Below, in pieces: positions 1-18,028 of a DNA stretch of 25,475 bases. Source of the DNA: a virus. Below the pieces are notes generated by a model. That model had not been told where the DNA came from and did not search any database. It saw nothing but the letters and a program-made list of their open reading frames with translations. Position 1 is the first letter of the stretch. Each line of letters opens with the position of its first letter. The position numbers and the translations under genes are program-made. The DNA lies in UHGV virus genome UHGV-0146066, one strand, 5' to 3'.

Positions 1-506
<506 letters not shown>

Positions 507-3997: not shown

Positions 3998-4000
3998 AAA

Positions 4001-4375: not shown

Positions 4376-4383
4376 GAGCGGGT

Positions 4384-4692
4384 TTACTTTACCTCGTTTT
4401 CAATTACCGCCGCATCTTTCATCAATGATGCTTGAGCAACTAAGCCGATTAATTCGCTGCGGACGCTAGTATACAATGCCTTAACTTGTTCAATAGATTC
4501 AAATACTGGCTTACCGTCTTCATCTTCAATACAACGAAGAATAGAGCGTTCATCACGGTCTTTTTTATCAGTATTGAAAACATGTTCATTAAATTCTTGT
4601 ACCGACATAGGGCGAGCATAGAACGTAAATCCTCCGAGGGTTAAAGATTCACGTTTCGGAGAAAGAGCTTTCAGCATTTCATTCAGATTCAT
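4384..4692 (-). CDS. Tail assembly chaperone, G-like, 102 aa
   Basis: Small acidic ORF with GAGGA Shine-Dalgarno, located directly upstream of the T-like ORF and the tape measure gene. Confidence 0.5.
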   Translation of the reverse strand: MNLNEMLKALSPKRESLTLGGFTFYARPMSVQEFNEHVFNTDKKDRDERSILRCIEDEDGKPVFESIEQVKALYTSVRSELIGLVAQASLMKDAAVIENEVK

Positions 4693-4737
4693 TATTGTTT
4701 CCTCATTAATAGTGATTACGCTGTATTTATTTAGAAT

Positions 4738-5244
4738 TTAAGAGATTTTCAAAGTCTGCTTAGTGCCAGTCTTCTTAATGTTATTGAGGAAAGCAGCCGG
4801 AGGATTGCTTAACCAATAGTAATGAAAACCGCTTTGCATACTGTTATAAGGAACAGTGACAGCAGCACCACCCAAATTAACGGTTATATTCCCCGCTCTA
4901 CCGTTCTGGAGATATACAGCCATAGTAGGAGTACCGCCATTGAATTGACCAACGATAACGCCAATCAGACGCCCTACGCCCACGTTTTCGGGGTTCTCCA
5001 TAGATCCTTTACCGCGCATGTCAGTTACTGGATAGTTTGAAGCAGTTACACCCCAGTTATTACCCAATGAAGTAGACCACGCAGCAGTAGCTACAACCGT
5101 ATCCATACCACGACCACACATCGCACTCATGTTAGCTGGGCGACTAACCTTTAATGCGTTCATTGCTGCGCTCATCCATCGTTGACCAGTTACAGAAACA
5201 GCAGATGACCCGACCCAGCCAGGCTTATTAACGACATTCGCCAT
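4738..5244 (-). CDS. Hypothetical virion structural protein, 168 aa (Gly/Ala/Asn-rich)
   Basis: ORF with GGAG Shine-Dalgarno 9 nt upstream of the ATG, inside the tail module. No recognisable motif. Confidence 0.5.
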   Translation of the reverse strand: MANVVNKPGWVGSSAVSVTGQRWMSAAMNALKVSRPANMSAMCGRGMDTVVATAAWSTSLGNNWGVTASNYPVTDMRGKGSMENPENVGVGRLIGVIVGQFNGGTPTMAVYLQNGRAGNITVNLGGAAVTVPYNSMQSGFHYYWLSNPPAAFLNNIKKTGTKQTLKIS

Positions 5245-5257
5245 TTTGATTACTCCA

Positions 5258-5286
5258 ATAAAAAAGCCCCACCATTAAGGCAGGGC
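5258..5286 (-). terminator. Intrinsic terminator after the tail tube gene and its extension ORF
   Basis: Hairpin 5266-5286 (GCCCTGCC...GGTGGGGC on the minus strand) followed by a U6 tract (plus A-run 5260-5265). Homologous to the terminator at 11094-11120. Confidence 0.65.
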
Positions 5287-5292
5287 TTATAA

Positions 5293-5412
5293 TTAATCTT
5301 TAGCCTTGCGGCTTCGTTTAGCTGTGGCTTTCGCCGTAACTTCTTCTACTTCTGGAATCACCACCGCTTCATGTTCCGGCTGTGGTTCCGGTTCGGGAAG
5401 TTCTTCGTTAGT
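5293..5412 (-). other. In-frame 39-codon extension ORF after the UGA stop of the tail tube gene (candidate readthrough product)
   Basis: Codons directly after TGA (5413-5415) read TNEELPEPEPQPEHEAVVIPEVEEVTAKATAKRSRKAKD, then TAA at 5293-5295. Homologous to the extension after the capsid gene at 11130-11255. Confidence 0.55.
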
Positions 5413-5886
5413 TCATCCGGCAGTGAAGATTTGCTGTTTCAGCGGAGCACCATCCACCGCGAAGGTAAACTCTTTGGTTACAACTTCTTCATCGCCACCG
5501 TTCATAGCAACTTTAGAAATGAAGCCGTTGAAAGCGGTGCGAATACCAGTCTGTTTTGCTGCGTCAACGTAATATTCTACTTTAATCTGAATACGAGTAC
5601 CGTCTTCGGCAGCTTTGATCAGTTTTTCATGTACCGCATCGCCTGGGATGTAGTTAACGGTCAGAGTCAGATCAGGAACGTTCAGCTTCCCTACCAGTTT
5701 ACGGTTATACTGAGAAGAGAAGGATTTAACTTCTACAGTACCGCGCTCGATACCAGTTTCAGGAAAACCAGCACACTCTTTAATTTCTTCGTAGCTTTCG
5801 TGGTCGAGAGCGGTATTAGTGGTGTCCGCGTGATAGAACAGACTTACCAGACCACCAGTAAAAATATCTTTGAATTGCTGAGACAT
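5413..5886 (-). CDS. Tail tube protein, lambda gpV-like N-domain fold, 157 aa
   Basis: AAGGGG Shine-Dalgarno. Motifs TLTVNYIPGD, KAAEDGTRIQIKVEY and AFNGFISKV align with remembered gpV motifs [23 protein letters not shown] and VFRGWVSSIG. Ends in UGA-A. Confidence 0.6.
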   Translation of the reverse strand: MSQQFKDIFTGGLVSLFYHADTTNTALDHESYEEIKECAGFPETGIERGTVEVKSFSSQYNRKLVGKLNVPDLTLTVNYIPGDAVHEKLIKAAEDGTRIQIKVEYYVDAAKQTGIRTAFNGFISKVAMNGGDEEVVTKEFTFAVDGAPLKQQIFTAG

Positions 5887-5911
5887 AGAATTACCCCTTA
5901 ATTAAAATTGT

Positions 5912-5930
5912 TATTACGGGGGAACTAGTC
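5912..5930 (-). other. GC stem-loop downstream of the tail fiber gene (possible weak terminator or stability element)
   Basis: GGGGGA-ACTAGT-TCCCCC perfect inverted repeat. No adjacent U-tract on the minus strand. Confidence 0.4.
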
Positions 5931-5942
5931 CCCCGACTTTTA

Positions 5943-8900
5943 TTATTTAGTTGCTTTCAGTTCGGCAATTTCTTTCTGTAATGCTTCGATCTGGGCTTTA
6001 TATTTGGCGTCCATTTCCTGCATAGCTTTGATGATTAAAGCATTGACAGCAGAGTTAGAAATAGTCTTGATTGCTTCTGGATTTTCTGGATCTTCGGTGG
6101 ATTGAATACCTACTGCTTCCGGCAATACTTCTTCCAGATCCTGAGCAATAATACCTACTTCGCGTTTAATCACACTACGGTCTTTAAGAGATTTAACTTT
6201 ATCGTAGGTGTAGACTTTCAGTGAGTTTACTTTCTCTAATGCGCCGTCCTGTAATTCTTCCTTGTTAATCTTCAAACGGGAGTCAGAGCGAATGTAAACA
6301 TCGTTAAACGAACCGTTACGACCTGCGGTAAAGTCACCAGCAGCGTTAAAGTCAAAGTTAGTATCATGAACATGGAGACGAACAAGAGCGTTACCGATAG
6401 TACCGTCAGGAACGTGCACACCCATTGCTGCAATGTGATATTTACCCCAATGCGTCGCTTTCCATACGTTATGTGCCGAGTTGGTGGAATGAGGACACCC
6501 AACCATAAGACCAGCAGCACGGTCACGCCAGCTAGCCCAACTACCGCCAGCAACTTCACCACGAATCAGGCCATTACCGCCACCGGTTACAGTACCAGAT
6601 TCCAACTGGATCATCTTATCCGCAAGTTTCCACGTCTGGGCTTGTTTCTGACCACGGAAGCGAATAACACCAGCATCATCGGAATACATCAAACCTAGTT
6701 CTAAGCCATTCGGATCTCTAAACCACAAATGCTTATTACCAGTGCGCTTAAATTCAATATCAGCACCGTTAAGCGTGATATTACCGCCAGTGTGAATTGC
6801 TTGAGGCTTAACAGTACCGTTGATGGCAAACTCAATTGCCGTAGTACCCGGACCGCCCGGACGTTGGGTATACCAATGCCAACCGCTTTCATCAGCACAT
6901 TCAAATACTTGTTTACGAGCATCAGCGCCCCATGCACGAATATTGAAACTAGAAGTAGCTGTACCCTTACCCCAGCGAATCAGACCAGCAGATTCCAAAT
7001 CACCGAAGAATTTAGTTTTAATCGCACCAGTTGCTAAAGTACGTTCAGTGGTGAAGTGAGCACCTTTACTATCTTCAAGCTGTATAACGTTATCACGAGC
7101 GTTATTGCTATCGCCCCAATGACTCAAACGGAAATAGTCGCGGGATTGTCCAGCACCAGCATCAAATGTTAAATATTGGCCTTTAATGTATGTGTTTCCA
7201 GCAAAACGAGCAGCACGACTTGCACGTTCTAAGACTAATGCACCTTCGTTACCATCACCACCCAAAGTAACATTACCGCTACCCAGATTGTAAATGAATG
7301 GACGATAGCCGTTCCAACCACCAAATTTATCATTTTCGGCAGTAGACAGAAGATATACGTTTTGACCATCATTACGCCAGAATGCACCATAGTTACCGTA
7401 AATCATACGGAATGCATCACTGTTAGCAGCTACATATTGACCATTGGTGTATACAATTTTGGTAGCACCTGTGCTTAAAGATACTTGACCACTTGCTTCT
7501 AATTTAACAAAGTTTTTACCTTCGTCACTATACCATTGAAAATCGTTAGTATCTGTAGAACCAAAACCAAACCAGCCTTGACGTTTATTAGCCCCGTCTC
7601 GCTGATCCATATATTCAAAATAGTTACTACGACCAGTAGGACGCCACATACGAATCGCGTTATTGCCTTGCAGATGAAGTCTATCGACAAATAAACCATC
7701 ACTACCAACAATTTTTAATACTTCTTTTTGGTCGGTGGAACCAGTAGCCAAACGATACACATCACCTTGAACAGTTTCATGCCATATTGTTTCCGCCGCA
7801 CGACTGCGGAATTTACGCATATATTTTTTATTGTTGTCTGGTACGTTATTAAGGCTCACAATATCATAGGTTGCTTGTGAGTTATTATCAAACATCAACG
7901 TTCCGGCTTTGTTTTCGGTGTTGAACATCGTAATAACACGAGCATCGGTAACACCAACAGAAGGTTTAACGAGAGTTAATTCAGGAACATCATGTACTGT
8001 CAGAGTAACGCCATCAGTTTTACCGTATTCGACAATAACGTTATCGGTGTAACGACCGTAGTTAACGTAGATATCGTAGTTATCACCGGAAGTATTAACC
8101 GCAAATACTTGATGAACGTTCAGAGCATTTCGACGATAAGCAGCAATACTAACGCCTTTCGGGTTATTGTTACCGGAACGGATGACAATTTCTACAAAGT
8201 CAACCTGATCATAAGAGTTAACGTTATAACCATTACCACCGAAGATACGAAGCATTACCATTCGACCATTCTGTGGGATCGTAGCGGTTGCGATCTTGAA
8301 GTATCCACGAGTAGCATCACCAGAAGGAACGGTCATTCTAACGTTCTTGATGAACATCTGATCAACTTCGGCTTTACTATACACACCCAATTCAGTCGGA
8401 GTCGGCTTATCACCTTCGTGATACATGCGGTAGCTGAATCGCTTATTACCATCTTTATCAAAGCCATAGGTTTTAACTTGAGATGAGCTAGACCCATAGT
8501 GGAACTCAAAACCGCGACCGTGTGCTTTACCGCCAGAATGAGGAATGTTAAGGATTAAGTTACCCCAACCTTCGGCATTGTTTGGACGGAATGCACCAAA
8601 ATAATCAAGGTTACGAGCACCAGCATCATCAAAATAGTTAGCTGTTTTGGTTAACAGATAGCCGTGATGGTAAGTGTTGGTATTCTTCTTGATGTAAGCA
8701 GCATCGGCACTACCTTCAATAGAATCAATTCGCTGGTTAGCTGCGGCAATTGCGGCATCAGTAGAAGATTTATTCTGGTCTACCTTGTTGTTAATTGCTG
8801 TATGGTTGCTATTAACTGTCCCCGTAAGATTGGTGATCTTCGTGTCGGCATCGCGTTTATTATTTGCTACGGTCGTTTCTATGGCTGATTTATTTGCTGA

Positions 8901-9443
8901 GACAGTATTCGTTAAGTTAGTAACGTTGGTATTAGTCTGATCAACTCGTGCATTAATATCTGTCTTGTTCTTGTTAATTGTTGCGTTGATAGTATCGCGG
9001 GTTGAAGTAATAGTCTGATTCAGTTCAGTCTTAGCAGCCGCCAGAGCGTTAGCCGCTTCGGTTTTATTGTTACCTACTGTGGTAGTCAAAGCATCAATTC
9101 GTTTGTTGGCTGCGGTGTCGCCAGCAGTGATTGAAGCATTGAGAGCATCACGGGTAGAAGTGATAGTCTGATTCAGTTCAGCTTTAGCACTAGCCAGATT
9201 ATTAGCGGCTTCTTGTTTGTTGGAAGCAATAACACGGTCAGTGCTAGTTTTGTTATTGTCTACTTTCGTATTCAGTTCAGCGTGTTTTTCTGGAGAAACA
9301 CTAATTTGGACTACGTTATTATTTTTGTCTTTGGTGTAAATCACATGATCCGCCAACTGTAAGGCGATTTCACCCTGTGATAATTGTTCCGGCGTTGGTT
9401 TTTTACCCGCCGTCTGTGTGCGTTTAAATTGGATTGATTGCAT
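5943..9443 (-). CDS. Tail fiber protein with C-terminal intramolecular chaperone (peptidase S74-like) domain, 1166 aa
   Basis: N-terminal KRTQTAGKKPTPEQLSQGEIAL fiber motif, repetitive Thr/Asn-rich shaft, and a C-terminal RSDSRLKINKEEL...VGIIAQDLEEVLPEAV...ALIIKAMQE region typical of autoproteolytic fiber chaperone domains. AGGTGA Shine-Dalgarno. Confidence 0.8.
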   Translation of the reverse strand: MQSIQFKRTQTAGKKPTPEQLSQGEIALQLADHVIYTKDKNNNVVQISVSPEKHAELNTKVDNNKTSTDRVIASNKQEAANNLASAKAELNQTITSTRDALNASITAGDTAANKRIDALTTTVGNNKTEAANALAAAKTELNQTITSTRDTINATINKNKTDINARVDQTNTNVTNLTNTVSANKSAIETTVANNKRDADTKITNLTGTVNSNHTAINNKVDQNKSSTDAAIAAANQRIDSIEGSADAAYIKKNTNTYHHGYLLTKTANYFDDAGARNLDYFGAFRPNNAEGWGNLILNIPHSGGKAHGRGFEFHYGSSSSQVKTYGFDKDGNKRFSYRMYHEGDKPTPTELGVYSKAEVDQMFIKNVRMTVPSGDATRGYFKIATATIPQNGRMVMLRIFGGNGYNVNSYDQVDFVEIVIRSGNNNPKGVSIAAYRRNALNVHQVFAVNTSGDNYDIYVNYGRYTDNVIVEYGKTDGVTLTVHDVPELTLVKPSVGVTDARVITMFNTENKAGTLMFDNNSQATYDIVSLNNVPDNNKKYMRKFRSRAAETIWHETVQGDVYRLATGSTDQKEVLKIVGSDGLFVDRLHLQGNNAIRMWRPTGRSNYFEYMDQRDGANKRQGWFGFGSTDTNDFQWYSDEGKNFVKLEASGQVSLSTGATKIVYTNGQYVAANSDAFRMIYGNYGAFWRNDGQNVYLLSTAENDKFGGWNGYRPFIYNLGSGNVTLGGDGNEGALVLERASRAARFAGNTYIKGQYLTFDAGAGQSRDYFRLSHWGDSNNARDNVIQLEDSKGAHFTTERTLATGAIKTKFFGDLESAGLIRWGKGTATSSFNIRAWGADARKQVFECADESGWHWYTQRPGGPGTTAIEFAINGTVKPQAIHTGGNITLNGADIEFKRTGNKHLWFRDPNGLELGLMYSDDAGVIRFRGQKQAQTWKLADKMIQLESGTVTGGGNGLIRGEVAGGSWASWRDRAAGLMVGCPHSTNSAHNVWKATHWGKYHIAAMGVHVPDGTIGNALVRLHVHDTNFDFNAAGDFTAGRNGSFNDVYIRSDSRLKINKEELQDGALEKVNSLKVYTYDKVKSLKDRSVIKREVGIIAQDLEEVLPEAVGIQSTEDPENPEAIKTISNSAVNALIIKAMQEMDAKYKAQIEALQKEIAELKATK

Positions 9444-9459
9444 CTAGAATCACCTCACT

Positions 9460-9492
9460 ATAAAACAGGAATAAGGGAGGCGTTAACCTCCC
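9460..9492 (-). terminator. Intrinsic terminator after the 277-aa gene
   Basis: Hairpin GGGAGG-CGTTAA-CCTCCC at 9475-9492, followed on the minus strand by the U-rich run UUAUUCCUGUUUUAU. Confidence 0.5.
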
Positions 9493-9524
9493 AACGTTCA
9501 TGTTTTATTTAGGTAGGAGAATCC

Positions 9525-10358
9525 TTAGTATTCGCCGAAATCGATCCGGTCAGTCTTAGCCACTGCGCCAATTTCGCTAGGTGTCGGTTTCTCATTGGTG
9601 GAATATACCTTGATCCATTCAGAACGACCGTTTTCCTGAATATTTCGGACACGTAAACGCGGTGCGCCAGAAGTATTACAGGTTAATTGCCATGCGCCAT
9701 GCTCATTAGCTTGAAGGTGAATTAATGCTGTGTCGGTTGAATATGGATTACCGCTAGCAGTTCCCTTGTAAGTTACGAAACGGTTTCCGGCTAATGCCTC
9801 GCTGTCAATCGGACCCGTGAATGGATTTACACCAGCACCCAAACCAAAATCACCCTGACGTAAGATCCGGCCTTCGGTAGCAATACCCCTTGCCAAAATC
9901 CCGCCATCTGGTTCAAGTTTAAATTCCAGTGTTACAGCTTTGTTATCACTACCACGGGTTTTATGTGATGTGACGTAAGCATCGAATATACAAAAGTACC
10001 CTGTGTTAGCAGCACTATAGCCAGAGTTCACAACATAGAACATACGGAAGCGTAAAGGTGTTTTATCCTCTACCGCTTTCATCAACATTGCTTGATGTTC
10101 ATCGTCAAGAACACGGTTTAATGTGAGTGTTGTCGGTTCCAGTCTACGATAACCAGCAAGTTTCCCCGTAGCGTCCTGATCGTACTCTTCCAGAGTTTCT
10201 ATCTCTGTGGATTCGGTTAGCGTAGGGAATGCTGCGATGTTCTCCATAGAACTAAAGCTAGGATCGAAAAAGTCGACCTGATTGTCTATCTGGTTAGAGA
10301 TCGACACTTCAACATGTGATCCAGTGAAAATATCTAAGTTATCTTGTGTAATATTCAT
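9525..10358 (-). CDS. Putative major tail protein paralog (gpV-like N-domain) with fiber-like C-terminal motif, 277 aa
   Basis: EHQAMLMKAVEDKTPLRFRMFY resembles the gpV segment [21 protein letters not shown]. C-terminal NEKPTPSEIGAV resembles the KPTPxE motifs in the tail fiber. Lies after a gpU-like gene. Confidence 0.45.
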   Translation of the reverse strand: MNITQDNLDIFTGSHVEVSISNQIDNQVDFFDPSFSSMENIAAFPTLTESTEIETLEEYDQDATGKLAGYRRLEPTTLTLNRVLDDEHQAMLMKAVEDKTPLRFRMFYVVNSGYSAANTGYFCIFDAYVTSHKTRGSDNKAVTLEFKLEPDGGILARGIATEGRILRQGDFGLGAGVNPFTGPIDSEALAGNRFVTYKGTASGNPYSTDTALIHLQANEHGAWQLTCNTSGAPRLRVRNIQENGRSEWIKVYSTNEKPTPSEIGAVAKTDRIDFGEY

Positions 10359-10367
10359 TATTACCCC

Positions 10368-10790
10368 TTAAAAACGCGCTAGATAAGAAAATTTAAGGCT
10401 AAGTGTCCCAACGATACCCCCATCACTAGAATCATCGTCATAATCGGTATTAGAAGCTACTGGAGTGATATCTGAAATAGAGAAGCCCAAATCTTTAAAT
10501 CGTGGGTTATCCGGCTGAATCTGGATTATCTGGCAAATACCCTCATGGATTTTTGTTTCATGAATCTGAGAATATAATTGCATTTCGATAACGCATTCAG
10601 CTTGCATTGCATTACCACCACGAACACGCGTATAAGTTTCATTCATGCCAGTAATCCAACAAACCACGTCATCACTAAAGCCTTGCTGAGTTTGTTCTAC
10701 GTTTAAAGCCAGACCTAAATCTTGTTCGATAATATCTTGCAAGGCGCGTTTGATTTTCAGTCTCGGCATATTATTAACGGTAGCGAGCAT
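10368..10790 (-). CDS. Head-tail joining / tail terminator-like protein, 140 aa
   Basis: AGGGGG Shine-Dalgarno. Position between head genes and tail tube genes; size similar to gpU-class proteins. Overlaps the upstream ORF by 17 nt. Confidence 0.4.
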   Translation of the reverse strand: MLATVNNMPRLKIKRALQDIIEQDLGLALNVEQTQQGFSDDVVCWITGMNETYTRVRGGNAMQAECVIEMQLYSQIHETKIHEGICQIIQIQPDNPRFKDLGFSISDITPVASNTDYDDDSSDGGIVGTLSLKFSYLARF

Positions 10791-11064
10791 GTGTACCCCC
10801 TGCTAAAGTGATAAAGCAATCACAAGTATTGTCACCATTGCGCTTAACGTATTGAACTTTGAAACGCTGGTTTTCTACTGTGACAATATCACCTTGCTTT
10901 AAGTCTCCCTCACGACAGAATAGAAATTCGGTTTCTGTCATTACACCTGATTCGTCGGTAGTAGTAATTTCATGGTAAGCACGAATTGATTTACCACCTT
11001 CCACCGAAAATACAGGAGCACTTTTAAACATTCGATTTAATTGTGATTCTGATAATTTGAACAT
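10774..11064 (-). CDS. Head-tail connector / head completion protein, 96 aa
   Basis: AAGGGGG Shine-Dalgarno. First gene after the capsid gene terminator. Function inferred from position only. Confidence 0.4.
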   Translation of the reverse strand: MFKLSESQLNRMFKSAPVFSVEGGKSIRAYHEITTTDESGVMTETEFLFCREGDLKQGDIVTVENQRFKVQYVKRNGDNTCDCFITLAGGTHARYR

Positions 11065-11093
11065 AGTTACCCCCTTTATGGAGTATTTACATA

Positions 11094-11120
11094 CAAAAAA
11101 GCCCCACCGTTAGGCAGGGC
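11094..11120 (-). terminator. Intrinsic terminator after the capsid gene and its extension ORF
   Basis: Hairpin 11101-11120 followed by a U-tract on the minus strand (plus A-run 11094-11100). Homologous to the terminator at 5258-5286. Confidence 0.65.
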
Positions 11121-11126
11121 TAATTA

Positions 11127-11255
11127 TTATTCTTTAGTTTTACGTTGTTTTTTAACTGTGGCTTTCGCCGTAACCGTCTGAGATTCTTCTTCCTGAGATG
11201 GAATCAGATTTTCTTCCCCCAAATCGGGGGAAGGTTCAGATGGTTCTACGTTAGT
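11127..11255 (-). other. In-frame 42-codon extension ORF after the UGA stop of the capsid gene (candidate readthrough product)
   Basis: Codons directly after TGA (11256-11258) read TNVEPSEPSPDLGEENLIPSQEEESQTVTAKATVKKQRKTKE, then TAA at 11127-11129. Differs from the 5293-5412 extension by in-frame indels only. Confidence 0.55.
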
Positions 11256-13262
11256 TCATTCAGCGGAGATGTGAAGAACTTTCAGAGCTTCCGGCTGAAC
11301 TACGGTGAAGTCCAGGTCTACCCAGATACGCGGAACGATAGCAGACTGTGCGCGGTAAGTGGTGTCGTCCATATCCAGTTCCAGACCACCCCATTCACCG
11401 ATCATGATACCGGAGAAGTCACCCAGAACGATGTGGTCTGCCGGAATAACGCCAGAAGTAACTACATCGTAACCAGCCAGTTTGCCGTTTTCGATGATAT
11501 AACCGGAAACGCCGTTATCTTTCAGGGTAGATTCCAGTTCAGCAGCAGTTGCACCGCTCATTGCAAACTTGATGGACTGTGCCGGAACGCCAGCGTCGGT
11601 CAGTGCTGCAATTTCTTTCAGGAAGTCTTTGTAGCTAAAAGCGGCTTTCTTAGTAACGCGACCACCGTCTACCAGTTGCTTAACCAGACCTTTCGGACCG
11701 CGCTCGTTGTCTTTGTCAGACAGAATCAGTTGTTCCAGTTTGATCCGAACAGATTTGTTAATGTGATCAGTGATCAGGGTAGCAATATTCGGAACAGTTT
11801 TCAGAGACTGACGGCTGATCGGGTTGCCACCAGCAAAAGTTTTCGGAGCCATTTTCACGTTTTCAAAGCTAGCCTTCGATTCGGGGGCACTTCCATTTTC
11901 ATCAACAAAACCAAAGGCTTCGACGCTGGAAGCAGTCATTTTTGGTACTGCAATCGGGCTATTCAGACCAGACAGAACAGTCACACCCAGACGACCCAGA
12001 ACAGACTGTGGAAGCAGCATTTCTACATAGGATTCGGTCAGCAGTTTTTCGTCGGTTACAGCGGTCAGAGTAGCTTTGGTGTTACCTTCGGAAGCAGCAC
12101 GCAGAGCAGCAGCCGGAACGAATACAGAGCCACCGCGAGCAGCACGACCACGCTGCATTGCAGCACCAGCAGCCATAGCGGAATATTCAGCTTCGTTAGC
12201 GCCGAGCACGTCGCCATCTACCAGGGAGCGGATTACGTTATTAAGATCGAAAGTTTTTTCCATGATTTGTTCCTTATTAATTTGTTCGTTATTACGTTGA
12301 ACATTGGTAATGTTATTTAGTGCCTTAGTGCGGAATGCTTCCGGCGTCATATCTTTAACTGCCAATGCGCGTTCTAATTCTTCGTCGTTAATATTTAACT
12401 CACGAGCGATTGCTCGGATTTCTTCTTCGTCTTCTTCGGAACGTTCAGCCACTTCTTCGATTTTTTCTTCTTCAACCGGAGCGGCTTCACGTTCTTCTTT
12501 TACTTCTTCTGTTTCCCGAACAGTTGAACTATCATCATCAACACTTTCAGGATGTTTAGCGTCTTTTCCGTCTTCGAGATTTTCATCTTCTTTATTCTCT
12601 TCAACTTGGCGCTCTTGAGTTTCTTCTACTTCCGGTTCTTTATTTTCTTCTACCGGAGTTTCTTCAACCTGAGCGGGTTCTTGTTCTTCTTTGATTTCTT
12701 CGATTTGTTCTTTAGTCATATCGCGTTTAGCCTCCAAATTAACTGTGATAGTATTTAGAGAGCGATTCAGACCCACGGTGTCGTCTGCGGGAACAGACAC
12801 CCATGAAACCTCGTGAGGAATCCATTTAGTAACAATCAATTGTCCTTTGGTGTAGTCGATGTGATATTCTTTAATGTCATAACCGACAGAAATTTTTTCC
12901 ATCGTACCTTCAATGACTTTATTACGAATATCATTAGCCAAAGTGCCATGCTTAGAGAATTTAACCAGAGCACGACCTACGTTATCCGCATCGATTCGAG
13001 CGTTACAAACGACACCAATATGATTATCGAAATTATGATTGAACAGCAACGGAGCGTTATTATTCAGACGAGACAGATCAACCGCTTCCGGTGTATGTAC
13101 CAGAATTTCATCTAATACCACCATTTCTTGATTTTGCTCATCCCAGAATTGGCGCTGATAAGGCTGTTCACTGGAGAAAGCAATTTCAAATTCGTATTGA
13201 TCATTCTGCCCTTCGTTAATAACTCCACCGTAACCGTTAAGATCGCGGCGAAATTTAAGCAT
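11256..13262 (-). CDS. Prohead protease - scaffold-like acidic linker - HK97-fold major capsid protein in one 668-aa ORF
   Basis: N-terminal ~180 aa protease-like region, then a very acidic Glu-rich segment, then a C-terminal ~335 aa capsid-like region (GGSVFVPAAALRA...). Internal AAGGA-N7-ATG at 12263 could start a separate capsid product. Confidence 0.7.
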   Translation of the reverse strand: MLKFRRDLNGYGGVINEGQNDQYEFEIAFSSEQPYQRQFWDEQNQEMVVLDEILVHTPEAVDLSRLNNNAPLLFNHNFDNHIGVVCNARIDADNVGRALVKFSKHGTLANDIRNKVIEGTMEKISVGYDIKEYHIDYTKGQLIVTKWIPHEVSWVSVPADDTVGLNRSLNTITVNLEAKRDMTKEQIEEIKEEQEPAQVEETPVEENKEPEVEETQERQVEENKEDENLEDGKDAKHPESVDDDSSTVRETEEVKEEREAAPVEEEKIEEVAERSEEDEEEIRAIARELNINDEELERALAVKDMTPEAFRTKALNNITNVQRNNEQINKEQIMEKTFDLNNVIRSLVDGDVLGANEAEYSAMAAGAAMQRGRAARGGSVFVPAAALRAASEGNTKATLTAVTDEKLLTESYVEMLLPQSVLGRLGVTVLSGLNSPIAVPKMTASSVEAFGFVDENGSAPESKASFENVKMAPKTFAGGNPISRQSLKTVPNIATLITDHINKSVRIKLEQLILSDKDNERGPKGLVKQLVDGGRVTKKAAFSYKDFLKEIAALTDAGVPAQSIKFAMSGATAAELESTLKDNGVSGYIIENGKLAGYDVVTSGVIPADHIVLGDFSGIMIGEWGGLELDMDDTTYRAQSAIVPRIWVDLDFTVVQPEALKVLHISAE

Positions 13263-13283
13263 TTAATCACCTTTAATTAATTG

Positions 13284-13300
13284 GGGGCATTGCGCCCCCG
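13284..13300 (-). other. GC stem-loop between the portal and capsid genes
   Basis: GGGGGC-ATTGC-GCCCCC inverted repeat. No U-tract; on the minus strand it immediately precedes the AAGGTGA Shine-Dalgarno of the capsid ORF. Confidence 0.4.
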
Positions 13301-13307
13301 TTGGTTA

Positions 13308-14819
13308 TTAGGGATCGGTTTGAGAAGGGTTATCCTTGCTCTCACCATCAACGATAATATTTAGTGCGCTCTTTTCGGCTTGAATCTCTGAGAATACTTT
13401 TTCAGGATCATCACCACGTTCTAATATAACGGCAGTACGTGATTTAAGTCCGTTATCAATTAAAGCAATCTCGGCGCTTACGTCTTTAAATGGATCGACG
13501 GATTCAAAACGAGGACGAATAATAGTAGTGTTCTCGATAATATGCGGAATTGCAGTAATACGAATCGGAACAATACCACGCGCAGAATAATGGCGTAGAT
13601 ATGCTTCAAAAATTGGCAATACCACTGTTTCAATCAATTTGTTTTGCAGTGCTTTAACGCGCGTTCTTTGAAGTAATTCGCCGTAGCGTGCGGCGCTGTA
13701 ATTTATTTGGCTAGTATCGCCAGTTAAGCCCTGATTGAACACGCCAAGACCCATCGCTATACTCGTGAACATTCCATCATTGAAGCTGTTAAAGTCATCG
13801 CCGCTTTGCGTGGATTGAATACTCTTGATCGTTGCCCCTTCCGGTAATTCCTGAATAGTACCTGGCGCGAAATCGTGAATAACTTCCGGCGCTTGATATT
13901 GTTCATCATCTTCACCAGTATCAAAATCGTCACCAGAATCTTTCGGACGCTCGATGAACGCCATGCTACAACTTGAAATTCGTTTATGTACCAGTACAGC
14001 TTCGCGGAATGCGTCTTGATGTGCGATATCCTTAATCACTGGCAGGAAGTCAGTCACACCACGCAGAGATTCAGCCGCAAGTGGTTGATAATAATGACAT
14101 ACTTGCGAAGCATCTACGCGATAGTTATCACCTGTGTAAGTCTGAGTCAGTAGGTTGATTTTACGAAACCAAAATGCAACAGGGCGCATTGTTTCTACGT
14201 CATACTCGATCCCCTGATAGATAGCGCGTTCTTTGCTTACTTCACGGTTGAGCGTCCAGTCGCACTTATCAGCAGACAGGATAGAAACATTTAACTCATT
14301 GTTTTCTTTGGTTAAAACTATGAAGCACTCACCACCCATAACGCGCTCACGTTCAGCCATTACCAGCAATTCACGGAAGTTAAAGCGACCGTTACGAGAG
14401 AAGCGTTTAGCATTCTGCGCCCACTTCCAGAAAGCATTCTCGATCTGCTTATTCAGTGCGCTATCAAGTTTTCCATTTGATTTAACAACTGACGGCTTCG
14501 GATCTAGGCCAGTACCTACCACCATATCGGTGATGTATTGCGTGTAGCGACTGCCTACGGAGGTGTTTAAGGCCAGAGTACGACCCTGATCATAAAGGCG
14601 CTTACCATTCGATTTGAGAGCCTTATTGAAGGTTCCTGTGATAGTATCTTGTTGAAGCGATCCATCAATGCGATCACCAACCAGACCTAAACTTCGAGTA
14701 GCCAGAGATTTCTGGAATTTTTCTACTTGTTTGTCGATAAAGATTTTTTGTTGTTGCTGGCGGTGATTAGTTTTAACTGGAGTTTCTACCGCCTTTTTGC
14801 GTCGAAAAAGATTAAACAT
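13308..14819 (-). CDS. Portal protein, 503 aa
   Basis: Size and position between the terminase and protease/capsid genes. AGGGG Shine-Dalgarno. Acidic C-terminus. Confidence 0.7.
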   Translation of the reverse strand: MFNLFRRKKAVETPVKTNHRQQQQKIFIDKQVEKFQKSLATRSLGLVGDRIDGSLQQDTITGTFNKALKSNGKRLYDQGRTLALNTSVGSRYTQYITDMVVGTGLDPKPSVVKSNGKLDSALNKQIENAFWKWAQNAKRFSRNGRFNFRELLVMAERERVMGGECFIVLTKENNELNVSILSADKCDWTLNREVSKERAIYQGIEYDVETMRPVAFWFRKINLLTQTYTGDNYRVDASQVCHYYQPLAAESLRGVTDFLPVIKDIAHQDAFREAVLVHKRISSCSMAFIERPKDSGDDFDTGEDDEQYQAPEVIHDFAPGTIQELPEGATIKSIQSTQSGDDFNSFNDGMFTSIAMGLGVFNQGLTGDTSQINYSAARYGELLQRTRVKALQNKLIETVVLPIFEAYLRHYSARGIVPIRITAIPHIIENTTIIRPRFESVDPFKDVSAEIALIDNGLKSRTAVILERGDDPEKVFSEIQAEKSALNIIVDGESKDNPSQTDP

Positions 14820-14829
14820 GATTTACCCC

Positions 14830-15324
14830 TTATCGCGTAAGACGTAATTTGATATTTTTAATCGGACTAATTCCCTGTTTACGTCGTTCGGCTTGAATTA
14901 ATTTAGATAACTGACGTTCATAATCAGTCTTTAATTGCTGGAGAACAGCCAATGACTCATAGGCGAAAGTATTCCCTTTCACTGTCATTTGAGATAATGC
15001 GGCTTCGTCCCCAGATAAACGGGCGAAAATAACTTGCTCGATTAAGGCGATAGTTTCCCGCAGATATTCTTTTTTGGATTGTTTGGCGAATACTGGCAAA
15101 ACAGTTAATTCCTGCATTGATACCAGTTCTTCTTCCAAAGTTATTACGATGGTATATTTACCTTCGGCAAAATCTAAGGTTTTAATCTCATGATTAGCCG
15201 GAGAATCATCAACCTGATAGATAATATCTTTATTATTTCCTACCTGAATTGTTACACCCTCTTCATTCGCCAGCGTGACTTTTTCGCCTTTACGAATTAC
15301 TAAGGGAATTAGTTCTAAACTCAT
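14830..15324 (-). CDS. Hypothetical head protein, C-terminal half gpW-like (head-tail joining), 164 aa
   Basis: Lies between the large terminase and portal genes, the position of lambda W. C-terminal helical segment loosely resembles gpW. Confidence 0.35.
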   Translation of the reverse strand: MSLELIPLVIRKGEKVTLANEEGVTIQVGNNKDIIYQVDDSPANHEIKTLDFAEGKYTIVITLEEELVSMQELTVLPVFAKQSKKEYLRETIALIEQVIFARLSGDEAALSQMTVKGNTFAYESLAVLQQLKTDYERQLSKLIQAERRKQGISPIKNIKLRLTR

Positions 15325-15396
15325 AATTACCCCTTATTTAATTGTTATTGGATTAACAATATTTAGGAGTAAGCCGCCCCGAAGGACGGCGAGTTA

Positions 15397-17301
15397 TTAG
15401 AACGATGTTACCCAGCTACGGCCTCTATTTGGGCGTCTGGCGATGTTTTTACGTTGTGGTCGTGTGATTGGCTTATTTTCTTCGATTTGCTCGTCAGATT
15501 GCGATTTAGGAGCTTCTACGGGTTCTTCTGGTTCGCGGTTCAAACTATCTTTGATGGCTTCGAGTTTTTCCCATGACATTTTATTGAGTACATGGCGAGA
15601 AGCAGCATAGGAATAAGCCAGGCAGTCGAGAGCCTCGTTTCGTTGCTGACCAACTTTTACCCAACGTGTGGTATTACCCTGCCGTTTCAACTGTTCAGAT
15701 AACAATTGTTCGCAGTAGTCATCAGGAACGTCACCAATCTGGAAGACCGTATGAGGATCGCTGTCTCTCAAGTTCCGGTTAATCATTTCACGGATCATCG
15801 TCTTAAGGTTGTTTACGCCCAGAATTTTAAGAGTAAAACCACCCGTTCTTGTGTCCTTGACCGGAAGGATTGGAGCATCAACATTGCTTGCCCCTTTAAT
15901 GGCGCATAGGTTTTGCCACCTAGTGCAGAAGCGATAGATCACGTTTGTAGCTCGTCCGTTCGATGAGTCCACGAAAGCAGATAGCATCGGGATTCGTTGA
16001 CCTGATCGGGTATAGAATTTAGCTTTCAGGAAGTTGTAAAGCTGGTCATATGCTGGCGATTCGTGGCGTTCGCAGTTCACATCATAGAATGATCGGTGAT
16101 CAACTACGCATATCCCCTTACGAGAGATACCCAGCAAGGTAGATTCCAGACGGTCTTTTTGCTGGTCAACTCCACCTACCAGAGCCAGAACATCATCAGG
16201 AATATTATCTAAGCTAATGTCAGTTTTCAGCGTTTCCAGTTCGTCGGCTGTGCGGTCTTCGTTAAGATCATCGAAGGTTTCACCGAGCACCACATTATAG
16301 AACGTTGCCAGTGACATATTCGCGTAGCTATCAGCAAAGTCCACCACACACGCACGGATAGAACTAAACGGAGACATAAGGCGGTTAGCATGAAAACCGA
16401 TTACTTCCGCATTTGGTTCGGTGGCGACCCATTCTCCCTGAGCAACAGCACGGAGGCGATCTGGTTCTGACCAATCAGTTTCACATGACGGGCAACGGTA
16501 AACGGCTGTGTCTGGATTCGGCAGTGATTTACCATTGATTACATGCCAATCAAAGAATACTCTACTCCATTCCATTACGTGTTTGTGTCCGCAATGCTGG
16601 CAAACGACGTGGTATTTTCTTTTATCCGAGAGTTCCCATTGTTGGTTTATCGCCCCATCCCGCGAAGTTGGAGTAGAAGCAATTACGATCCTTGCATCAT
16701 CACCGAAAGTGGTTGCGCGTTGTTCCGCTAGCTGGATCGGGTTCCCTTCGTCTGACTCATCAGCCGCATCAACTTCATCCAGAATAATCAAAGGCAGTGT
16801 CTTACCGCGCAAGTGTGATGGACTGTTCAGCGACATGAAATACATGAATGATCCGTTACGAAGCTGAATAATCGATGAGTTGTTAACGGCATTGCGATCT
16901 GATTTGTCGGTGATCATCGCCTTTAATTCTGGGGTTGCCTCTAATACTGGCTTCACCTTACCCGCAATCCATGAGTTCAATTCTCGAACGTTCGCTTGCA
17001 AAACACCGATATTAGTAGGGTTACTGGCGATCCTGTGAAAGATAATACCGTTTAGCACAAGAGTTTTACCCAACTGTGCCGAGCACTTTAGCACAATTTT
17101 TCGCCTATCTTCGGTGATCGCGTCCATCATTCCACGTTGGAAGGGATGCAACTTAATTAGAGATCCGGCTTTAACACCATCGGTTGCAACTACATTAGCC
17201 TCTACCCATTCGCTAGGTTTCATCGTTTTAGGTGGGCGAATTGCCGCAGAGATATTTTTAAGAATCTTTTTTAATTTGGCCTTATTAGAAATCAGTTTCA
17301 T
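15397..17301 (-). CDS. Terminase large subunit, lambda gpA family, 634 aa
   Basis: N-terminus IRPPKTMKPSEWVEANVV resembles gpA RPEPQTAVEWADANYY. Also IKGASNVDAPILPV versus gpA IKGASVYGKPV, and RNEALDCLAYSYAA versus RNEALDCFVYALAA. GAGGGT Shine-Dalgarno. Confidence 0.85.
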   Translation of the reverse strand: MKLISNKAKLKKILKNISAAIRPPKTMKPSEWVEANVVATDGVKAGSLIKLHPFQRGMMDAITEDRRKIVLKCSAQLGKTLVLNGIIFHRIASNPTNIGVLQANVRELNSWIAGKVKPVLEATPELKAMITDKSDRNAVNNSSIIQLRNGSFMYFMSLNSPSHLRGKTLPLIILDEVDAADESDEGNPIQLAEQRATTFGDDARIVIASTPTSRDGAINQQWELSDKRKYHVVCQHCGHKHVMEWSRVFFDWHVINGKSLPNPDTAVYRCPSCETDWSEPDRLRAVAQGEWVATEPNAEVIGFHANRLMSPFSSIRACVVDFADSYANMSLATFYNVVLGETFDDLNEDRTADELETLKTDISLDNIPDDVLALVGGVDQQKDRLESTLLGISRKGICVVDHRSFYDVNCERHESPAYDQLYNFLKAKFYTRSGQRIPMLSAFVDSSNGRATNVIYRFCTRWQNLCAIKGASNVDAPILPVKDTRTGGFTLKILGVNNLKTMIREMINRNLRDSDPHTVFQIGDVPDDYCEQLLSEQLKRQGNTTRWVKVGQQRNEALDCLAYSYAASRHVLNKMSWEKLEAIKDSLNREPEEPVEAPKSQSDEQIEENKPITRPQRKNIARRPNRGRSWVTSF

Positions 17302-17388
17302 GTAATTACCCTCATTACGAAATATGAAGGTATTTATTAAATTGTTGATATTTTGATAAATACGGGTATTAAGATTTAAGGGGGGTGT

Positions 17389-17994
17389 ATGCTAATTAAT
17401 CAGCAAGAAAGAGATGAATTAGAATTAGCCTTGTCTTGTTGTACCGATCATGAATATCGTTTGCCAGTTAAGCACCATCACAAGAAGACTGATTACACTA
17501 CATCCGGTTTTAGTCGCGAAGAAGCGAAGCAAATTTTAATCGAGTTGTATCGCGATCATGGGTATACAGATATCCATAACTTCTTTAAGAAGCACCGAAC
17601 ATCACAGACAGAGTTTCAGCGAGTCCGTGAATGGTTTGATTTTGATATCAAGCGTTATTATCGAGTGGATGACGGTCCAATCTATCGGTTGCAGTGGAAG
17701 CCGATCAGGGAAGTGCTTAAACAGAAGAGATTGAATCATGCCATTACACGCTATCGTAACGTGGCTTTCAAGAAAGGCTATGGTGATACAAGGGAATTGT
17801 TTGTAGAACTCGCTAACGTGCGATATAGCCATTATTACAGGAATCCTAAAGAGTTCTTCGAAGTGCTGCGCAAGGTTGATATAAGTCGGGGTACATACTA
17901 TTCACGGTTGAAGAAGTACGGGATTAAGGCAGAGTTTTTTATGTCAGTTGACGATGGAGAACTTTTTCCGATAAAATGTAAGTCCTCTAAATAA
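17389..17994 (+). CDS. Hypothetical DNA-binding protein with C-terminal HTH (ISRGTYYSRLKKYGI), 201 aa
   Basis: AGGGGGG Shine-Dalgarno. Divergent from the large terminase gene. The C-terminal motif resembles recombinase/Fis-type helix-turn-helix. Confidence 0.5.
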   Translation: MLINQQERDELELALSCCTDHEYRLPVKHHHKKTDYTTSGFSREEAKQILIELYRDHGYTDIHNFFKKHRTSQTEFQRVREWFDFDIKRYYRVDDGPIYRLQWKPIREVLKQKRLNHAITRYRNVAFKKGYGDTRELFVELANVRYSHYYRNPKEFFEVLRKVDISRGTYYSRLKKYGIKAEFFMSVDDGELFPIKCKSSK

Positions 17995-18028
17995 AGGTGA
18001 ACATTCACTTTAATTTGGAGAAATGACT

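Follow-up and report, generated by a model that had tools for sequence, protein, structure and literature searches.

The question raised by this locus is why the capsid and tail tube genes, presumably the most highly expressed genes of the phage, end in a single UGA followed by A, yet have no backup stop for the next 39 to 42 codons. Both genes lie on the minus strand of the window, by which we mean the whole stretch of 25,475 nucleotides of UHGV virus genome UHGV-0146066 that was analysed; the features discussed below are collected in Table 1.

Table 1. Features of the capsid and tail tube cassettes; positions are those of the window.
Feature	Position	Strand	Remarks
Tail tube gene	5416..5886	-	157 aa; lambda-like tube domain only
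Tube stop UGA, followed by A	5413..5415	-	Read from the sequence
Tube extension ORF, 39 codons	5296..5412	-	Paralogous to the capsid extension; TNEELPEPEPQPEHEAVVIPEVEEVTAKATAKRSRKAKD
UAA-UUA-UAA (two in-frame stops) and paralogous intrinsic terminator	5258..5295	-	Terminator of 10 pairs
Capsid gene	11259..13262	-	668 aa; N-terminal prohead protease, acidic scaffold-like linker, HK97-family major capsid domain
Capsid stop UGA, proposed leaky stop	11258..11256	-	+4 base A at 11255; read from the sequence
Capsid extension ORF, 42 codons	11255..11130	-	Translation TNVEPSEPSPDLGEENLIPSQEEESQTVTAKATVKKQRKTKE
Spacer of 10 nt between UGA and RNA structure	11246..11255	-	ACUAACGUAG; family consensus A[C/A]U NNN G[U/A]A G
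Structured RNA domain	11172..11245	-	Closing helix AACC/GGUU; predicted fold
8-bp hairpin within the RNA domain	11213..11233	-	CCUUCCCC-GAUUU-GGGGGAAG; predicted fold
Mini-hairpin GGC-GAAA-GCC, GNRA loop	11160..11169	-	Within the invariant tag core GTTACGGCGAAAGCCACAG, coding VTAKAT
Tandem in-frame stops UAA UAA	11129..11124	-	Close the capsid extension, 2 nt ahead of the terminator stem
Capsid intrinsic terminator	11121..11094	-	AGCCCUGCC-UAAC-GGUGGGGCU, then U6; stem 11121..11100

The capsid ORF, stop included, occupies 11256..13262 (-), and its product contains the Pfam domains Peptidase_S78 (residues 40-162) and Phage_capsid (residues 410-664). Its best PHROG match is PHROG 617, major head protein (E 8e-95), and the closest solved structure is the major capsid protein 8gta (E 4e-28). 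The protein ends in ...VLHISAE, after which come TGA and the extension, an acidic Pro-rich linker (TNVEPSEPSPDLGEENLIPSQEEESQTV) followed by a basic tip (TAKATVKKQRKTKE). The tube ORF, at 5413..5886 (-) including the stop, reads ...FTAG-TGA-ACT-AAC; its product matches PHROG 158, major tail protein (E 3e-21), scores borderline against Pfam Phage_TTP_11/12, and goes under the RefSeq product name 'phage tail tube protein' in relatives. RefSeq annotation of the extension region is absent at every locus examined. In both extensions the two closing in-frame stops lie 2-3 nt from a terminator, and these terminators are the two best terminator-like sites in the part of the window from 4000 to 18000, the tube one ranking first and the capsid one (9 pairs, 6 of them GC) second.

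A sequence-only reading of this DNA had claimed that the capsid frame stays open for 42 codons past the UGA and closes with TAA-TAA at the terminator, and that within the late operon only the capsid and tube genes end in UGA-A. The sequence with its translation and the table of ORF stops agree with these two claims. TAA ends 19 of the 23 ORFs tabulated in the window, and five late genes carry a tandem TAA TAA. Two other ways of reaching a product beyond the capsid stop were rejected. Frameshifting into a +1 or -1 extension is ruled out, as the shifted frames close within 2-4 codons of the capsid UGA and the extension lies in frame 0. Re-initiation at an ATG overlapping the stop (ATGA) would yield only Met-Asn-stop, and this ATG is missing in variants that read GAC-TGA.

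The explanation we favour, and regard as probable on the sequence data, is that the host tRNA-Trp reads through the UGA, so that some capsid and tube subunits, a minority, gain an acidic Pro-rich spacer with a basic tip. Most ribosomes would stop at the UGA-A and release a capsid protein of normal length; a small fraction, probably not above a few per cent, would insert Trp at the UGA, translate the 42 further codons and halt at the UAA-UAA just ahead of the transcription terminator. The product would be a capsid subunit bearing a disordered C-terminal whisker, an acidic Pro-rich spacer with a Lys/Arg-rich tip, presumably exposed on the virion surface, and the RNA structure described below may boost its synthesis. 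Since a homologous tube cassette is found in many members of the family, head and tail would carry the same tag in low copy. UGA termination is better with the RF2 of wild E. coli than with the K-12 variant of this factor, and the rate of readthrough may therefore be low.

The anatomy of the cassette, its predicted RNA structure, and the conservation of the frame, the stop type and the stop context are all shown by the sequences. For the comparison with relatives we used 48 capsid loci of two capsid types, which are 41% identical to each other, and 29 cassette-bearing tube loci; the first 43 capsid loci represent 21 haplotypes and the first 28 tube loci 16, giving 37 altogether. The family consists of E. 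coli prophages, 86-100% identical inside each capsid type, and because it is shallowly sampled many of the loci are not independent. TGA-A is invariant at the capsid loci (48/48) and the cassette-bearing tube loci (29/29), and the codons ahead of it in the capsid gene vary (AE, AD, SE, GE, EE, VD or SD). The tube genes that lack the cassette all end in UAA (5/5), with their own terminator directly after it. In E. coli, tRNA-Trp misreads UGA when an A comes next, according to the work of Engelberg-Kulka (1981) as cited in PMC5289835.

Loss of the frame in relatives is the outcome that the sequence-only reading had named as contrary to its claim; the frame and the end stops are kept, along with UGA-A, at all 48 capsid and 29 tube loci. 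None of the 37 haplotypes has an in-frame stop in the extension, while frames +1 and +2 are closed in every one of them, and the loci added later (capsid L121-L125, tube L125) likewise have an uninterrupted extension frame. The capsid extensions fall into length classes of 28, 33, 42, 43, 44 and 45 codons and the tube extensions into classes of 36, 39 and 41 codons, all in register. This implies at least seven length changes, all of them multiples of 3, with the terminal tandem stops staying in register, for which the chance is about (1/3)^7. The end stops of the relatives' capsid extensions are TAATAA, TGATAA or TAATAATAA, each in frame. After mononucleotide shuffling, the extension frame is open by chance in 7% (capsid) and 18% (tube) of cases, so the single window is weak evidence and it is the relatives that make the case strong.

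The length variants also bear on the idea that the extension contains a separate small gene, one possible start being the in-frame TTG within ...PDLGEEN... A 33-aa ORF of this kind (P0004, MGEENLIPPQEEESQTVKAKATAKKVGRPPKAK) was once predicted by a gene caller and is held in a public collection. Against such a start, which to us is scarcely credible, no Shine-Dalgarno sequence lies upstream of the TTG, which is itself buried in the 8-bp hairpin; the start is absent in the 28-codon variant, the PDSGEE variant and all tube variants; and a separate gene would leave unexplained the UGA-A and the match in frame with the capsid gene.

According to the sequence-only reading, the tube extension is homologous to that of the capsid gene, and this homology extends to the DNA, the two cassettes having TGAACTAACG, GTTACGGCGAAAGCCACAG and the terminator in common. 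The core GTTACGGCGAAAGCCACAG occurs exactly twice in the window, once in each cassette, versus 0 occurrences expected by chance. Between the tails KKQRKTKE (capsid) and KRSRKAKD (tube) 9 of 24 nucleotides differ, and the amino acid changes are all conservative or silent. Both cassettes occur together in the window and at L003, L004, L005 and L125; certain relatives have the capsid cassette only. The end of the capsid gene is a mosaic boundary, placed at the stop (matches H110-H114), from which it follows that the cassette moves together with the downstream module.

The ratio pN/pS is 0.81 in the commonest, long capsid variant, 0.20 in the short capsid variant and 0.33-0.56 in the tube extensions, at low diversity throughout. 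The long variant is mostly invariant at the nucleotide level as well, and the synonymous sites of the extension are probably constrained by RNA structure. The substitution pattern is weak evidence of amino acid constraint. The interpretation put forward in the sequence-only reading is supported in part: its claims about the sequence all hold, with the value of 0.81 in the common long variant as a reservation. Another reading is that the extension is a decaying remnant: the capsid and tube proteins would once have ended in this tail as a regular part, until a nonsense mutation cut it off, and the sequence would not yet have degraded. The tail does resemble coding sequence, yet has a pN/pS of about 0.8 in the long variant. 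We consider such decay very improbable: two genes would have had to acquire an identical TGA-A and to keep it across capsid types that are only 41% identical, no extra stop or frameshift has appeared in 77 loci despite several indels, and no fused version was found.

A conserved and stable RNA structure inside the extension was overlooked in the sequence-only reading. The RNA of the extension folds with z = -4.6 to -5.1, a stronger fold than in any of the 166 background windows of the late operon. In MFE folds of the capsid classes (28, 33 and 42-45 codons) the first paired base lies 10 nt past the UGA; in the tube cassette the distance is 10 nt for the class of 41 codons and 12 nt for that of 39. 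The second hairpin of the domain holds the hypervariable SQ/EP/KP codons in its loop, and the mini-hairpin GGC-GAAA-GCC is predicted to be paired in each variant. In the long class 24 of 26 pairs are invariant, with no double changes, and 22 of 24 variable columns are unpaired; covariation is uninformative in this class because the stems do not vary. Compensatory changes are seen elsewhere, though in few independent events: U-A to C-G in the hairpin of the short variant, U-A to C-G in the GRPP hairpin, and two U-A to A-U pairs in the closing helix of the tube cassette. In the 33-codon variant exactly one hairpin is deleted.

Structure beginning about 8 nt past the stop is a common stimulator of readthrough in eukaryotic viruses (PMC3542737). 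The 10-nt start found here is slightly beyond these usual 8 nt. On the simplest reading the RNA structure belongs to the recoding signal, or else the sequence has a further function at the RNA level; the structure could by itself account for the nucleotide conservation of the extension. We know of no structure-stimulated readthrough in bacteria apart from selenocysteine insertion. The UGA might itself be read as selenocysteine under the direction of a SECIS-like hairpin, the hairpin-rich region beginning about 10 nt past the UGA, a spacing similar to that of the minimal E. coli SECIS. This reading deserves practically no credence: the hairpins of the variants share neither sequence nor loop (GAUUU, GAAA or a 10-nt loop), none of them has the GGUC-type apical loop with a bulged U that SelB requires, and selenocysteine would have no obvious use in a structural protein.

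A more serious alternative, although in our judgement an unlikely one, is that these approximately 130 nt form an untranslated cassette of structured 3'UTR plus terminator in two paralogous copies, of which the open frame is a by-product. Its job would be to stabilise the capsid and tube messages, to tune the terminator, or to yield a small RNA derived from the 3'UTR. Much of what has been described suits such a cassette. The fold with z = -5.1 is the strongest of 167 late-operon windows, the RNA architecture is the same in all variants, and variation shuns the stems, where compensatory changes are present; the missing hairpin of the 33-codon variant, the pN/pS of the long variant, the ending of the conserved structure in an intrinsic terminator that is one of the two best sites, and the mosaic boundary at the capsid stop, with the cassette moving along with the downstream module, point the same way. 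What it leaves unexplained is that one frame is open in 37 haplotypes while the other two are always closed, that the length changes, at least seven in number, are all multiples of 3, that UGA-A is constant in an otherwise UAA-using genome, that in-frame tandem stops always stand at the end, and that non-identical variants all code for an acidic Pro-rich linker and a basic tail. No Rfam family matched at the gathering score, and relaxing the search to E up to 10 brought up nothing but noise; the cassette-less tube genes do with a terminator right after their UAA.

The closeness of the end stops to the terminator stem in both cassettes (2-3 nt) allows a further reading, in which ribosomes that have read through would sit at the UAA-UAA and block the terminator hairpin, so that the leakiness of the stop is coupled to downstream transcription and the peptide is irrelevant. 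The near-neutral pN/pS of the long variant and the preservation of the frame, UGA-A and the position of the stops are consistent with this. A readthrough of a few per cent would shift termination only marginally, however, and the leading ribosome alone could act; moreover, the character of the peptide is kept across variants, with pN/pS of 0.2-0.56 in the other classes. Coupling of this kind through a leaky stop is speculation for which we know of no precedent, and we regard it as distinctly improbable.

Searches for relatives outside the family and for fused forms were also made. When the region of the capsid and its extension was compared with 50,697 phage records by megablast and blastn, no match appeared. 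By tblastn the capsid finds relatives in these records at no more than 40% identity, and the best of them, found at 40% identity in the record of phage DCP80, has a UAA stop with in-frame stops downstream, which makes it uninformative as a comparison. A profile scan of GTDB species genomes found only four relatives, which are 25-28% identical and differ in gene order. No relative has the UGA replaced by a sense codon, and this counts against readthrough as the best explanation. A word-indexed protein search for a fused homologue (capsid C-terminus, W and extension) returned only truncated fragments covering the capsid part, and an exhaustive HMMER search of the extension peptide against 1.84 billion representative proteins returned the 33-aa ORF inside the extension as sole match and no fusion. 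The degenerate pattern VTAKATAK has 32 family matches in IMG/VR and 16 others, nearly all due to chance. No suppressor tRNA of phage origin was detected in the window or in a complete 36-kb prophage.

The nearest counterpart to the readthrough we propose is found in the RNA phage Qbeta, in which UGA readthrough yields about 5% of the coat protein in an extended form, A1 (PMC7026636). The likeness consists in the E. coli host, a coat gene ending in UGA followed by A, and, in our proposal, occasional reading by tRNA-Trp. In Qbeta the extended subunits are incorporated in the capsid. What Qbeta, a small RNA phage, adds is a domain that folds, has about 195 aa and is required for infectivity; here it would be a peptide of 28-45 aa and low complexity in a tailed dsDNA prophage with an HK97-fold capsid. 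Unlike Qbeta, this family also has the tag on its tail tube gene and a conserved RNA structure after the stop.

Among tailed phages, recoding yields longer forms of the capsid and tail proteins in the Listeria phages PSA, A118 and A500, and the coat protein of Lactobacillus phage A2 is extended in the same way (PMC5009743). The three Listeria phages resemble the present family in that the capsid and major tail genes both have a 3' recoding extension, which in those phages gives a minor, C-terminally extended product. There and in A2, however, the ribosome shifts to the +1 or -1 frame, at slippery sites or at CCC_UGA, and in several cases Ig-like domains are added; here the extension is in frame, no domain is added, and the tag of the capsid is homologous to that of the tube. 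Phages T7 and T3 make a minor extended capsid form, 10B (PMC5009743). As proposed for the present case, the C-terminally extended minor form comes from the same mRNA; these are podoviruses, though, which use a -1 frameshift and have no tail-protein counterpart. The major transcription terminator of T7 lies just downstream of gene 10, and T7 display relies on the exposure of the capsid extension at the surface.

The signal proposed here resembles in layout the type II readthrough signals of alphaviruses, coltiviruses and furoviruses, which have a UGA, a short spacer and an extended stable stem-loop; these often extend a fraction of the coat proteins, and the stem-loop lies about 8 nt downstream (PMC3542737). 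They differ in working with eukaryotic ribosomes and release factors and in having a CGG or CUA triplet after the UGA. As for the tail, C-terminal fusions to lambda gpV are displayed on it (PMC6260602), and SPP1 gp17.1* has an accessory domain on a fraction of its subunits via recoding (PMC5009743). The Ig-like domain of gpV and gp17.1* are comparable to the tube tag in that they are accessory modules which follow a lambda-like tube domain C-terminally and project outwards from the tail. They are folded Ig or FN3 domains, while the tag would be a short charged peptide made by readthrough. An Ig-like or FN3 accessory domain (approximately 80-100 aa, folded) was rejected for the extension, which has just 28-45 aa of low complexity.

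We found no report in the literature of UGA readthrough in tailed-phage structural genes. To our knowledge, recoding that extends minor capsid or tail subunits in tailed phages is known by frameshifting only, and in-frame readthrough in E. coli is known from Qbeta and a few sporadic cases only. If our explanation is true, a UGA-A readthrough cassette common to head and tail genes would extend the recoding repertoire of tailed-phage assembly by a new mode. Annotation pipelines would then systematically overlook such products, as the RefSeq blank at every examined locus suggests. The cassette, at about 130 nt, is a compact natural system in which to ask whether downstream RNA structure tunes RF2 termination in bacteria. 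Should the RNA function be the real one, the two most abundant virion genes would each be followed by a phage 3'UTR element of a new kind.

What the tag might do is suggested by its composition, each variant having a Glu/Pro-rich linker and then a basic tail despite sequence change. The basic tip may bind polyanions such as LPS, capsule or DNA. A fuller proposal, which we advance tentatively and hold to be possible rather than probable, is that UGA-A, the 10-nt spacer and the multi-hairpin RNA together set a fixed level of readthrough above background in E. coli, as a bacterial equivalent of the viral signals in which structure follows a leaky stop, and that the resulting low-copy whiskers on head and tail, with their shared rod-like acidic spacers and basic, partly AT-hook-like tips, adhere to polyanionic surfaces. 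Programmed readthrough in the structural genes of a tailed phage would then have its first example, as would readthrough assisted by RNA structure in bacteria, selenocysteine insertion aside. The tag could also offer a natural site for display in low copy on both head and tail. The GRP core is absent from the capsid copy in the window (KKQRKTKE) and from the tube copies (KRSRKAKD, KRGRKAKN); certain variants end in ...AKKVGRPPKAK or ...AKKAGRPPKAK, which with the GRP core and its basic flanks resemble an AT-hook.

The late genes of the window all lie on the minus strand, and the capsid gene among them ends in a UGA behind which the frame stays open as far as a terminator-like site. The sequence-only reading had described 42 open codons past this UGA, then UAA UAA before the terminator, and every detail of that description is accurate. 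If the UGA is read, the predicted junction peptide would be VLHISAE-X-TNVEPSEPSPDLGEENLIPSQEEESQTVTAK.

The capsid and tail tube genes and the elements following the capsid stop (window coordinates)
Feature	Position	Strand	Evidence or remark
Capsid fusion ORF, 668 aa	11256..13262	-	Prohead protease (Pfam Peptidase_S78), acidic scaffold-like stretch and HK97-family capsid domain (Pfam Phage_capsid; PHROG 617, E 8e-95)
Capsid stop UGA, after ...VLHISAE	11258..11256	-	Sequence
Capsid extension, 42 codons in the same frame, TNVEPSEPSPDLGEENLIPSQEEESQTVTAKATVKKQRKTKE	11255..11130	-	Translation
UAA UAA closing the capsid extension	11129..11124	-	In frame
Intrinsic-terminator-like site with T-run	11121..11100	-	2 bases past UAA UAA; among the two best in window 4000..18000
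Lambda-like tail tube gene, ending ...FTAG-UGA-ACU-AAC	5413..5886	-	Sequence

After the UGA of the tube gene, 39 open codons lead to UAA-UUA-UAA and the other top terminator of window 4000..18000. The two cassettes (UGA-A stop, open frame, in-frame terminal stops and terminator) are homologous at the DNA level, having in common TGAACTAACG, GATTCC, GAAGAAGAA, the 19-mer GTTACGGCGAAAGCCACAG and the terminator; the 19-mer occurs exactly twice in the window, where no copy is expected. The homology of the two extensions proposed earlier is thereby borne out, and the tabulated stops of 23 ORFs agree with the claim that only the capsid and tube genes end in UGA-A in the late operon. UAA ends 19 of these ORFs, with tandem UAA UAA in five late genes; behind both UGA-A ends a backup stop is absent for 39-42 codons. 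Shuffled sequences leave the frame open by chance in 7% (capsid) and 18% (tube) of cases, and on the window sequence alone the open frame is barely beyond chance; it is the comparison with relatives that decides the question.

The window belongs to a family of uncharacterised E. coli prophages, present in 55 of 5,426 complete E. coli genomes and absent from the 50,697 phage records searched. One complete member, at locus L120 (NZ_CP168998.1 3153548..3190340; ~36 kb), is integrated in ycdX, which it splits into two partial CDSs, and carries a large serine recombinase and a Rha-family regulator; its capsid gene has the extension and its tube gene is of the cassette-less UAA type, and the two tags are therefore independent.

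Relatives were compared at 48 capsid loci and 29 cassette-bearing tube loci, which are not independent, since the family is shallow and recombining. TGA-A closes the capsid gene in all 48, although the final capsid codons differ (AE, AD, SE, GE, EE, VD, SD); it is present even in a second capsid type, which shares just 41% identity with the window's. The five tube genes lacking the cassette, which are of a second tube type, end in UAA and have a terminator of their own directly behind it. No in-frame stop occurs in the 21 capsid extension haplotypes (from the first 43 loci) or the 16 tube haplotypes (from the first 28), and both other frames are closed in every haplotype; later loci (L121-L125) follow the same pattern. 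Capsid extensions have 28, 33, 42, 43, 44 or 45 codons and those of the tube 36, 39 or 41; all are closed by the same tandem stops adjoining the terminator, and each of the at least seven length changes is a multiple of three. Loss of the frame in relatives, named in the sequence-only reading as evidence against an extension, was looked for at the capsid and tube loci; the frame is kept and the hypothesis stands. Against this background a decaying remnant appears quite improbable. Initiation at an internal TTG, to which the 33-aa ORF P0004 points, is less probable still. Nothing is annotated by RefSeq in the ~190-nt gap at any locus examined, and protein searches found no natural fused form. 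Opposite the capsid gene and its extension lies a 391-aa antisense ORF with a TTG start (11145..12320, plus strand), its frame open in 19 of the 21 haplotypes; codon usage on the coding strand is its most likely cause.

The capsid gene in the DCP80 record, its product 40% identical to that of the window, lacks the feature. This record (L115, PQ671644.1, Escherichia phage DCP80; 141 kb, classified as T4-like, Straboviridae) has its protease-capsid fusion gene near the left end (5789..7789), followed by a 7-bp hairpin (GGAGAGA-GCAA-UCUCUCC) and, some 100 nt further on, a terminator; three stops interrupt the capsid frame past the gene, although it has a basic stretch at its end (LKKARARRVKSTD).

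Every variant of the peptide has a linker rich in Glu, Asp and Pro (VEPSEPSPDLGEENLIPSQEEES, EELPEEIPV, EELPEPEPQPEHEAVVIPEVEE or FEEQPQPIQDEPTVIPELEV), which resembles the Glu-Pro rod of TonB. There follow an invariant VTAKATAK and a Lys/Arg tail (KKQRKTKE, KKERKTKAK, KKVGRPPKAK, KRSRKAKD, KRGRKAKN or KRGRKPKE), the GRPPK variants of which resemble an AT-hook. In the window itself, the tail of the capsid extension and that of the tube extension show 9 differences in 24 nucleotides, all of them silent or conservative at the amino-acid level. The pN/pS ratio, 0.20 for short capsid variants and 0.33-0.56 for tube variants, rises to 0.81 in the common long variant of the capsid extension, values probably inflated because the synonymous sites are kept quiet by constraint on the RNA; the substitution pattern is weak evidence of amino-acid constraint, and the reading given here does not depend on it. 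Were the frame held open so that readthrough ribosomes get to the terminator, the frame would be explained and the peptide would not, and readthrough of a few per cent would have little effect; we consider this improbable.

Two other proteins carry similar motifs. In an unrelated capsid-like protein at L097 (IMGVR_UViG_2630968595_000002, minus strand near 1795..1818), which ends ...MAIYAHAKAEVTAKATAKK-stop, the core motif of the tag is fused in frame at the extreme C-terminus with no stop between; this may be chance, as the search pattern itself encoded VTAKATAK. L108 (IMGVR_UViG_3300032330_001930) encodes repeated GKRGRP AT-hook-like units with VTAKATAKAATRARSGGRRGRPKSTR at the C-terminus, and TAKATAK and GRP are therefore also combined in an AT-hook-type tail elsewhere.

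The sequence-only reading, correct in its description of the sequence, missed an RNA structure within the extension. The predicted fold of the capsid extension has a z score of -4.6 to -5.1 against shuffled controls, and none of the 166 windows taken from the late operon as background is as extreme; the score of the tube extension is -1.6 to -2.3. Two background windows around the point where the terminase gene meets the 164-aa gene (15075..15400, minus strand) come close to the capsid extension, with z scores of -4.5 and -4.7. The predicted structure starts 10 nt past the UGA in all variant classes except the 39-codon tube class (12 nt), and in all classes a closing AAC...GUU stands just ahead of a GGC-GAAA-GCC mini-hairpin within the tag core. 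In the capsid extension the predicted elements include an AACC/GGUU helix and a hairpin with arms CCUUCCCC/GGGGGAAG, and the hypervariable SQ/EP/KP codons lie in the loop of a second hairpin; in the 33-codon variant one hairpin has been cleanly deleted. Among the 17 distinct sequences of the long variant 24 of the 26 base pairs are invariant, and all but two of the 24 columns that vary are unpaired. Compensatory changes are found in the short-variant hairpin and in the hairpin encoding VGRPP (U-A to C-G in each) and in the tube closing helix (two U-A pairs to A-U); being few independent events, they lend modest covariation support. The modelled structure is probably under selection.

These observations bear on the strongest rival, that the region is an untranslated, structured 3'UTR with its terminator. 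It accounts for the fold, the stem-avoiding variation and the movement of the cassette with the downstream module (search matches H110-H114), but leaves unexplained the never-broken frame, the indels in multiples of three, the exclusive UGA-A, the in-frame tandem stops and the kept character of the peptide, and we regard it as unlikely. Selenocysteine insertion is scarcely credible, as the hairpin loops are not alike among variants.

From the sequence, we judge readthrough of the UGA by host tRNA-Trp to be the most likely mechanism, with somewhat better than even confidence. Neither the window nor one complete prophage contains a tRNA gene, so a host tRNA would have to read the UGA. The capsid and tube UGA-A would be read occasionally, giving extended minority subunits; at a few per cent, and if the head is T=7 and the tail has ~30 rings, we infer that roughly ten subunits in each head and several in each tail would be tagged. 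The C-termini of HK97-fold proteins such as T7 10B and the encapsulins face outward. Those of lambda-like tube domains do so as well, as seen in gpV display (PMC6260602), and the tag would therefore form an external whisker on head and tail. Its basic tip may bind polyanions. The context misread by E. coli tRNA-Trp is UGA followed by A (Engelberg-Kulka 1981, cited in PMC5289835), and ~5% of the Qbeta coat protein is extended through UGA readthrough (PMC7026636).

Qbeta A1 thus offers the same decoding event, although in an RNA phage and with a large, folded extension. In outcome the match is with Listeria phages PSA, A118 and A500, which have minor extended capsid and tail proteins, and a partial one with Lactobacillus phage A2, T7/T3 10B and SPP1 gp17.1* (PMC5009743); unlike the in-frame extension here, all of these arise by frameshifting, often with added folded domains. 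UGA, spacer and extended structure are arranged as in the type II readthrough signals of viruses of eukaryotes, whose structures begin ~8 nt past the stop (PMC3542737); the predicted structure might act likewise on bacterial ribosomes. The literature searched contains no account of tailed phages with structural proteins extended by readthrough.

A gp38-like tail fibre adhesin gene (168 aa; 4738..5244, minus strand; Pfam Gp38_N, PHROG 1121) separates the tube gene from the tail assembly chaperone and comes directly past the tube extension and its terminator. Among annotation-checked E. coli genome loci a 507-nt gene takes this position only where the neighbouring tube gene has the cassette (L003, L004, L125); at L005 the tube cassette is present and the gene absent. 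The chaperone pair (4384..4692 and 4001..4375, minus strand) has its downstream ORF in the -1 frame, with an overlap open for only 16 nt (AAACGAGGTAAAGTAA; 4375..4399, minus strand) that contains no classical slippery heptamer; the usual G/GT frameshift would need G_GUA_AAG beside UAA. The 277-aa gene (9525..10358, minus strand), which has the head-completion genes on one side and the tail fibre on the other, encodes a product whose N-terminal half (aa 10-154) matches PHROG 158 (E 1e-8), the major-tail-protein family to which the tube gene also belongs; this product may be a further tube-like protein bearing an additional C-terminal domain. At the left end of the window (31..360), ORF 82..360 (plus strand) presumably encodes the C-terminus of a transposase like those of the IS5 family; the adjacent 205-aa tail ORF (469..1086) ends TGA-C, and the tail region of the prophage may be cut here by an insertion sequence. 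IS elements interrupt several relatives as well.
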